A stretch of DNA of 64,000 bases from Octopus vulgaris (Eukaryota), in assembly GCA_951406725.2 (NCBI GenBank), contig OX597836.1, forward strand, positions 45,632,001 to 45,696,000, written 5' to 3'. A model generated the notes under the pieces. That model saw nothing but the letters and a program-made list of their open reading frames with translations. It did no database searches and was not told the DNA's origin. The position numbers were made by a program, and so were the translations under genes. This document shows positions 33,126 to 34,103 of the stretch, one piece after another; the stretch's first letter is position 1; every line of letters begins with the position of its first letter.

Positions 33126-33343
33126 TACTCTACCTCTGGTATTTGAGTACTCTTTTTTCCACCTTGTTTCACATTTATGCGTTTACTCCGGTATATACGT
33201 TCATATATATACATGGGTGTGTGTTTGCGTATGTGTGTGTGTATCTGTGTGTGTATACACATCTATGTCTACGACTTTCTTCTTATATTTGAGTATAATT
33301 TGCAGACCTTAGACTTTTTTTTACATATGCTGGTCACAGGTAT

Positions 33344-33399
33344 GATTGATTGATTCCAGTTTCAGCTCATGAGCTGTGGCCATGCTGGGGCACCGCCAT
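33344..33399 (-). mobile_element. LINE 3' tail with (AATC)3 end fused to U6
   Basis: agtttcagctcatgagctgtggccatgctggggcaccgccat differs at 2 nt from the LINE tail at 9400-9441. Confidence 0.85.
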
Positions 33400-33403
33400 A
33401 TAG

Positions 33404-33452
33404 AAAATATGGAACGCTTCACGAATTTGCGTGTCACCCTTGCGCAGGGGCC

Positions 33453-33492
<40 letters not shown>

Positions 33493-33507
33493 ACTGCCGA
33501 AGCAGTA
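33404..33507 (-). pseudogene. U6: U6 snRNA retrocopy (near full length) in a U6-LINE chimera
   Basis: minus: TACTGCTTCGGCAGTACATATACTAAAATTGGAACGATACAGAGAAGATTAGCATGGCCCCTGCGCAAGGGTGACACGCAAATTCGTGAAGCGTTCCATATTTT; ACAGAGA box and AGC triad intact. Confidence 0.95.
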
Positions 33508-34103
33508 TAAATTTTTATTTTTTAAATAATTATTTTTACCCTCAGTACTTATATTTTTAAATATTTTACTTCCCGAATCGGGTAATTCACTACTGAATCT
33601 TATTCACTGCCGATTTATCGCGGCTTGGTTGCGGCAGATAAAGATATTTGAATTGAAAACCTGATGTATAATGGGAGAACTTTGTGCGCATGTGTGTCCT
33701 TTCACGGGGATGATATGTATTCGAGTTCTATTATTATGTGTCCCCTGCGGATTCCACTGAAGATCTGCGGATAATTGTTTAATTATTAATGGTGAAACTT
33801 CGAAGTATGGAATTGAGAGATCCTTTCATATCTTCTCATAGTGTCTTGCAGGAGTACATCCAAAGCGCCGTTAAATGAGAACATATTTTTCGTGGTTACA
33901 CGATTTGGCGTCTACTTTCAGCATGTAAGGAAACCACTTAGTGGCTTTCCTCTTATATTTGAGTATTATTTGCAGTCGTTGGACTTATTTACGCATGCTG
34001 GTCACTAGTATAATTTGTTATTTTTTCATAATAATTTTTACCCTCAGTACTTATACACACACACACACACACATATATATATATTCACACATGTATATAT
34101 AAA

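Follow-up and report, generated by a model that had tools for sequence, protein, structure and literature searches.

This analysis concerns a copy of the U6 small nuclear RNA (snRNA) joined to the 3' tail of a long interspersed nuclear element (LINE) in a 64,000-nucleotide stretch of the Octopus vulgaris genome (assembly GCA_951406725.2, contig OX597836.1, positions 45,632,001 to 45,696,000), which as a whole is called the window here and within which positions are counted. Rfam model RF00026 matched a single U6 in this 64-kb window, on the minus strand (33403-33508, 106.8 bits, model positions 1-105), and alignment to the U6 gene L032 showed that the first four bases of the match belong to a target-site duplication rather than to the U6 copy. 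The original prediction, made from the letters of this stretch, had described a near full-length U6 ending in TTTT, followed by CTAT and a LINE tail with (AATC)3, with GTAT on both sides; both the Rfam match and the sequence bore this out (Table 1). The LINE-derived part comprises 44 + 12 bases (56 in total), with two hairpins.

Table 1. Coordinates of the U6-LINE chimera, its host repeat and a related LINE copy in the window
Feature	Position	Strand	Remarks
U6 snRNA copy (gene variant A), from about nucleotide 6 to the four terminal T	33404..33504	-	Rfam RF00026; alignment to L032
Linker CTAT	33400..33403	-	2 to 4 bases in neither U6 nor LINE
LINE 3' tail: hairpin 1 (33378-33397), hairpin 2 (33363-33376), conserved spacer	33356..33399	-	44 bases
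(AATC)3 terminal microsatellite of the partner LINE subfamily	33344..33355	-	three units
Target-site duplication, 3' copy	33340..33343	-	4 bases; 28 uninterrupted host copies have a single site
Target-site duplication, 5' copy	33505..33508	-	4 bases; three are also U6 nucleotides 2-4
Interrupted (partial) unit of the ~500-bp host tandem repeat	33275..33553	.	
Uninterrupted neighbouring host-repeat unit, empty site 34008-34011	33554..34056	.	82-85% matches to tandem units on other contigs
5'-truncated copy of the partner LINE (ORF2 C-terminus and the same tail)	9395..9760	-	in the window

Relative to gene L032, the U6 copy carries one internal substitution, lacks one T near its 5' end and differs in its first base, and its tail differs by one base from the end of the LINE copy L211. 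Because both parts are nearly identical to these two sequences, the insertion is probably young. The linker CTAT, which was found at one of 50 exact U6-tail junctions in the genome, likely consists of untemplated bases, and the bases common to the 5' duplication copy and to U6 make it possible that the 5' join involved microhomology.

The insert interrupts a repeat unit of about 500 bp, and its flanks aligned to positions 33945-34055 with 87% and 86% identity, at spacings of 670 and 502. The second region had been predicted to be an empty-site paralog; the alignment held, but the paralog proved to be the adjoining unit in a tandem repeat that matched at least 40 further places in the genome, including short tandem arrays on other contigs. 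In most of 28 aligned uninterrupted copies the 4-base site was read once, running straight into the 3' flank, and the target duplication is therefore real. The element found at -74 to -80 in four of four gene-like U6 loci tested (L032, L034, L040 and L123) was absent at the locus, as was the wider signature of a native gene (upstream element, TATA box at gene spacing, unique 3' flank), the upstream DNA being host repeat. A native U6 gene, which had been named among the findings that would overturn the prediction, was thus not encountered. An older solo U6 copy or native gene, into whose T-run a LINE tail was later inserted, would agree with the preference of the LINE for AT-rich sites, but we regard such a pair of events as highly improbable: the whole unit lies between the two copies of the duplication, host-repeat sequence continues on both sides of the site, the U6 upstream element is missing, a recognisable partner was lacking in only 5 of the 91 non-gene U6 copies tallied by hand (contigs 1-8), and in the pre-tRNA case described below the source gene lacks a tail that its truncated copies possess. 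Instead, a sense join between the intact 3' T-run and a 5'-truncated LINE, a duplication around the whole unit and no U6 promoter support, at the level of DNA sequence, a single retro-insertion of U6 together with the tail of a non-L1, stem-loop LINE. The U6 promoter lies upstream and is not copied into retrocopies, and the T-run would halt RNA polymerase III (Pol III) before the tail; for these two reasons the U6-tail copy would be a dead product. Taken alone, the locus is an ordinary U6/LINE chimera and an ordinary member of its set.

The 27-base core of the tail had 7,989 exact copies in the genome (2.8 Gb in 227 contigs, the scope of all genome-wide counts here). Tail copies with upstream sequence contained a reverse transcriptase (RT) frame and were up to 99.9% alike, so the partner LINE is young. 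Pfam matched RVT_1 and Exo_endo_phos_2 in the 956-amino-acid frame of L211, which ends short of the end of ORF2 (the second open reading frame); RNase H was not matched in this frame, nor was any Pfam domain in the short LINE fragment of the window. Only a distant likeness (75 bits) linked the partner ORF2 to L1 ORF2p. The claim that the partner was a non-L1, stem-loop LINE therefore stood, on the strength of its apurinic endonuclease (APE) and RT domains, its two hairpins and its microsatellite end. A 3' stem-loop followed by short tandem repeats, as is asked of CR1-group elements, is present, and the RT motifs suggest that the partner belongs to that group. The stem of hairpin 2 showed compensatory changes on both sides between tail families, and it is these changes that support the fold, since the window tail alone folded no better than shuffled sequences (z -1.5). 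Rfam found no ribozyme in the window, and visual inspection of the tail showed no hammerhead or hepatitis delta virus (HDV)-like layout.

Genome-wide, we counted 229 exact U6 3' ends, 50 exact U6-tail junctions (control 0) and 43 exact junctions of U6 to the start of a short interspersed element (SINE). Five of the 50 lie in one segmental array, leaving at least 46 events. The partners of the first 100 of the 229 ends (contigs 1-8) were tallied by hand: 9 were gene-like, 35 joined the first base of a full-length SINE, 34 (29 events) joined a tail just 5' of hairpin 1, in four tail families, and 1 joined inside hairpin 1, the remainder being internal or inverted joins (7), joins at other repeats (3), a tRNA-U6-U6 array (1), fold-back structures (5) and copies without a recognisable partner (5). 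Thus 81 of the 91 non-gene copies were fused, all but one of them in the sense orientation. The segmental array (L068-L073; contig 1, 132.42-132.53 Mb) is about 20 kb long and holds six copies of one U6-tail chimera.

The original prediction had envisaged either a one-off event or the seed of a U6-headed SINE, and neither description fits at least 46 U6-tail events that apparently formed independently. A single master chimera that was then amplified would account for the fixed junction, for at least 46 dispersed copies and for the few linkers that recur, and an Octopus vulgaris annotation does contain a SINE family labelled 'U-L1' (52,753 bp; PMC13282606). However, three U6 gene sequence variants exist and each heads chimeras (a search for a fourth, with one T fewer, gave 3 matches, all of them chimeras and none a gene), and the 31 chimeras with the partner LINE tail, mostly from a junction-biased search, had 26 linkers and 31 distinct combinations of variant, linker, loop and tail. 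U6 variant and tail subfamily were not associated (permutation p 0.76, 27 typed copies), and together with the 31 differing combinations this excludes a single master. The promoter, moreover, is not copied, and an abundant parent LINE end is the mark by which Kojima recognised independent chimeras (PMC4494074). Amplification of a master is therefore largely refuted already, and we give it almost no weight. The check proposed with the prediction, in which identical junctions would imply a SINE family and variable LINE lengths independent chimeras, would have misled here, as the junction is fixed and the events are independent all the same. By hand count, 25 of the 31 junctions contained extra bases and 6 joined the T-run cleanly to the LINE. 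C or CT was frequent after the U6 T-run with any partner or variant, and seemingly rarer after pre-tRNA T-runs; this is perhaps tied to the chemistry of the U6 3' end.

To describe where tails begin, we examined 90 tail copies, drawn from the first 100 matches, all on contig 1 and all with an intact hairpin 1, which the search pattern demands. Forty-one of the 90 started 0-6 bases before hairpin 1, 12 lay in a SINE and 37 were attached to LINE bodies, 28 of these 37 being at least 290 bases long. A control anchored in hairpin 2 (n = 30) yielded 17 long copies, 1 starting at about -12, 5 starting just upstream of hairpin 1 (2 with U6) and 7 broken inside it. Ends inside versus upstream of hairpin 1 numbered 1 versus 28 for U6-capped tails and 6 versus 3 for uncapped tails (Fisher p 2e-4, hand-tallied), so that it is the capped ends that are precise. 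U6 was never joined within the body of the partner LINE (0 of 10 in the unbiased set, 0 of 14 when the Rfam set was added), against 37 of 78 LINE-type copies that were longer than the tail (p 0.002 and 1e-4, respectively). The 5' end of the tail at hairpin 1 may be set either by a trimmed, tail-only RNA corresponding to the footprint of ORF2p or by a pause of the polymerase; we lean modestly towards the trimmed RNA, because capping follows template ends, and hold the pause to be somewhat less likely.

U6 was not the only transcript found at this position. tRNA sequence ending in a T-run headed 2 of the 41 tail-only copies, and a genome-wide pattern of T-arm, trailer, T-run and tail was matched exactly at 37 sites (control 0). 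Among 30 of these fusions that were fetched, none carried CCA, whereas all had trailers of 4-15 bases and a T-run, 27 of the trailers being distinct. They represent pre-tRNAs of the Glu, Asp, Leu, Gly, Ser, His and Arg types, some with an intron; Rfam matched 14 over the full model and 5 partially, and 11 fell below the cut-off. ARAGORN reported no tRNA in 39 tail-only loci, although Rfam did find an intron-containing one. One tRNA-Glu trailer (gene L348) occurred in 10 exact copies, namely one complete gene with a unique flank and nine dispersed fusions at the T-run. The partner tail was joined in four of the nine, another tail family in two and the start of a SINE in one, while the remaining two joins fell within SINEs; all but one of the nine were 5'-truncated. 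Because the intact source gene has no tail and its truncated copies do, insertion of tails into tRNA genes is ruled out. A corresponding search for the source gene of a tRNA-Leu trailer returned only two chimeras. Copies of this kind (L311-L350, on many contigs) combine a pre-tRNA with trailer, T-run and sometimes an intron with LINE tails and SINEs. In structure, as read from their sequences, these pre-tRNA fusions are proto-SINEs with a terminator at the junction.

In order to account for these patterns, we propose that the locus probably arose by an end-to-end template jump of the LINE RT onto the 3' U-run of U6. The two-hairpin tail would be bound by ORF2p, an AT-rich site nicked and synthesis primed from the AATC repeats. 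The break 0-6 bases 5' of hairpin 1, which is a pattern in the DNA, would reflect a real RNA 5' end, where the enzyme may add a few untemplated bases and then jump to a nuclear Pol III transcript at its oligo(U) end, the transcript being U6 or, as the fusions show, a pre-tRNA. At this locus, copying of U6 then ran nearly to the 5' end, and a 4-base duplication closed the insert. A template jump is favoured because the U6 junctions sit at template ends, that is, at the first bases of SINEs and at the tail boundary. In the R2 element, an end-to-end jump of the RT requires prior untemplated addition (PMC8857657), for which this RT uses pyrimidine dNTPs very poorly (10.1101/2021.04.30.442027). This behaviour fits the extra bases at 25 of 31 U6 junctions and the T/C linkers on the sense strand (C or CT after the T-run).

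The first of two further explanations places the join at the RNA level, where RtcB or another ligase would link U6 to the 5'-OH of a tail-only RNA before the product is retrotransposed. Ligation has been shown for human U6/L1 (PMC6789731), a fixed cleavage 5' of hairpin 1 would give a fixed junction, and the 6 clean junctions are of the form expected. We nevertheless consider it unlikely here. Thirty-five of the 100 U6 copies join the first bases of SINEs, which are presumably triphosphate ends, and pre-tRNAs with trailers occur at the same junction; the 5' end of a Pol III primary transcript is a triphosphate, and the 3' end of a pre-tRNA is oligo(U)-OH. RtcB requires a cyclic phosphate and a 5'-OH and fails on U6-OH or a 5'-triphosphate (PMC6789731), so the SINE-start and pre-tRNA classes do not suit this enzyme. 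Nor are extra bases at 25 of 31 junctions expected from the human case, in which 4-8 T are joined directly at scattered L1 positions (PMC6789731), and the tail neither resembled a ribozyme by eye nor contained one according to Rfam. The second explanation, in which DNA end-joining united separate tail and U6 complementary DNAs (cDNAs) at the place of insertion and the RT itself made no jump, also predicts extra bases and ragged ends, but it leaves unexplained the retained U-run of the acceptor, the sense orientation in all but one of 81 fusions and the nine fusions exactly at one pre-tRNA T-run, and we judge it more doubtful still.

Several points weigh against the template jump. All the evidence is a pattern in DNA, and a tail-only RNA with a 5'-OH would be a substrate for RtcB, so that the copy at this locus could be a ligation product; for octopus, a 3'-OH on pre-tRNAs and a cyclic phosphate on U6 are assumptions taken over from other animals. 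Since tails without a cap have ragged ends, the hot spot amounts to a zone. One U6 was joined inside another LINE family (L156), and several were joined inside SINEs. Extra bases were absent from 21 of the 30 pre-tRNA junctions, although the search pattern favours clean ones. Duplications around chimeras of the tail class were not more frequent than in shuffled controls (10 of 45 versus a mean of 7.7), whereas in one SINE class long duplications occurred in 4 of 10 (shuffled mean 0.66), although one of these is the tail of the SINE itself.

A non-L1 partner of U6 is not new, because such partners are known in vertebrates: in platypus U6 is found on short L2 tails and on SINEs (Mon1) with duplications of 1-9 bp, and in Anolis on L1, L2, RTE and SINE (Doucet 2015, PMC4476161). 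As in those species, octopus U6 lies in sense on the short tail of a stringent stem-loop LINE or on its SINE, duplications are small and solo U6 copies few, and template switching was proposed there as well. The octopus set differs in its invertebrate host, in U6 copies that are often near full length (those of platypus are mostly truncated), in a junction fixed at the hairpin boundary, and in its pre-tRNA caps, which the parts of that article available to us do not report (PMC4476161). Human U6/L1 chimeras, which are made by RtcB, likewise join the U6 T-run to a 5'-truncated LINE, but they involve L1 with a poly(A) end, duplications of 6-19 bp and scattered junctions with no extra bases (Moldovan 2019, PMC6789731); neither this combination at the locus nor scattered direct junctions in the partner set were found. 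Instead, the partner is of the CR1 type, the duplication is 4 bases long, the junction is fixed and often has extra bases, and some acceptors presumably lack a cyclic phosphate. Chimeras of tRNA and L1 in humans also bring tRNA sequence together with a LINE 3' end, at 21 loci (Law and Burns, PMC11838501), mostly as antisense tRNA halves attributed to twin priming, and not, as in octopus, as sense pre-tRNAs with trailer and T-run. The WEIRD and MGL elements of Magnaporthe share preferred template-switch sites and double jumps, but at many sites along the LINE rather than at one site at the 3' hairpin (Gogvadze 2007, PMC2104539).

Crocodilian SINEU elements, like the octopus chimeras, have an snRNA head and a retroposon tail, but they derive from masters, carry U1 or U2 heads and have no matching LINE end (Kojima 2015, PMC4494074), whereas the octopus copies are independent and have thousands of parent ends: no shared master was found (31 of 31 combinations distinct), and the parent LINE 3' end is abundant (7,989 exact copies; 37 of 90 tail copies on LINE bodies). 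The 'U-L1' family is a table label (Bonar 2026, PMC13282606), with two recent insertions of 353 bp in all, or about 176 bp each, and neither 'snRNA' nor 'chimer' occurs in the text of that article. Its sizes, taken from the table and not from a consensus, would fit U6-tail chimeras, although the partner in the set described here is a LINE other than L1 and the copies do not form a single family. That SINE heads or tails arise by template switching has already been put forward as a hypothesis (PMC5786205, PMC7245038). In the literature searched, with most subscription papers outside it, we met no description of U6 chimeras in invertebrates, of a junction fixed at a hairpin or of LINE tails capped by sense pre-tRNAs. 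What is new in the octopus set is the fixed junction, the many independent events and the oligo(U) acceptor rule, which also makes fusions of a tRNA head to a LINE tail.

We think there is an even chance that the LINE RTs of this genome routinely cap their shortest insertions with any Pol III primary transcript that ends in oligo(U), be it U6, an intron-containing pre-tRNA or a SINE RNA, at the hairpin boundary where its successful SINEs join their tails. If so, the genome would be a running record of SINE birth, with tens to hundreds of independent proto-SINEs (tRNA head and LINE tail) silenced only by the T-run at the junction, and it would offer in vivo evidence for template-jump chimeras made without RtcB outside mammals. 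The usual account of how a tRNA head acquires its LINE tail invokes a rare template switch, deduced from SINEs that are already complete. In octopus, the step in between can be seen many times and with traceable source genes, so that the acceptor rule, the junction site and the reason why most products stay dead can be counted and tested. The octopus set bears on the choice between ligation and switching for U6, because the pre-tRNA and SINE-start junctions do not suit the chemistry of RtcB. In annotation, such copies should not be taken for a 'U-L1' SINE family, for U6 genes or for tRNA genes.

Two SINE families that share the tail were examined, and what they have in common with LINEs is the tail and at most about nine more bases; this short overlap fits birth at the hairpin site, but it also fits selection on the tail alone. 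A young SINE of about 165 bases is joined to the partner tail within about nine bases of the hot spot (L101, L217 and ten more copies); it has a tRNA-like head with A and B boxes by eye, for which neither a tRNA match nor an Rfam match was found. At L310 (1410-1640), an intron-containing pre-tRNA-Leu is joined at its T-run to a different tail that ends in GAT repeats and is presumably RTE-like, so that a second LINE group seems to do likewise. At L146 (620-950), U6 is joined to the first base of a 5S-derived SINE (Rfam 5S, 58.6 bits).

U6 gene loci were observed at L074-L080 (contig 1, 139.42 Mb), L032, L034 and L123; they comprise three gene variants, one of them in a tandem cluster of seven, and have in common the upstream element described above and a TATA-like box near -31. 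For the two U6 copies in tandem at L123, a jump onto capped U6 was considered and rejected in favour of DNA duplication in a gene-like locus, since a mutation is common to both copies and the upstream element is present. At L086 (1364-1570), tRNA-Lys, U6 from about nucleotide 28 and U6 nucleotides 1-37 stand head to tail, with no duplication found by eye, and serial jumps are possible. The fold-back (inverted) U6 structures at L049, L137, L143 and L166, three of which have one common 3' flank, are probably DNA-level rearrangements.

The host repeat of about 500 bp (L179-L207 and the uninterrupted unit in Table 1) is unclassified and forms short tandem and inverted arrays on many contigs. Elsewhere in the window, decayed RT frames at 5425-7300, which by their motifs we take to be R4/Dong-like, precede a short 3' end of the CR1 type that has a second tail family at about 7160-7290. 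By similar comparison of motifs, positions 24081-24872 (+) presumably encode the restriction-like endonuclease domain of a non-LTR (long terminal repeat) element, 43752-44303 (-) resembles what we take to be a Helitron Rep, and 58366-58944 (+) a presumed Tc1/mariner transposase.
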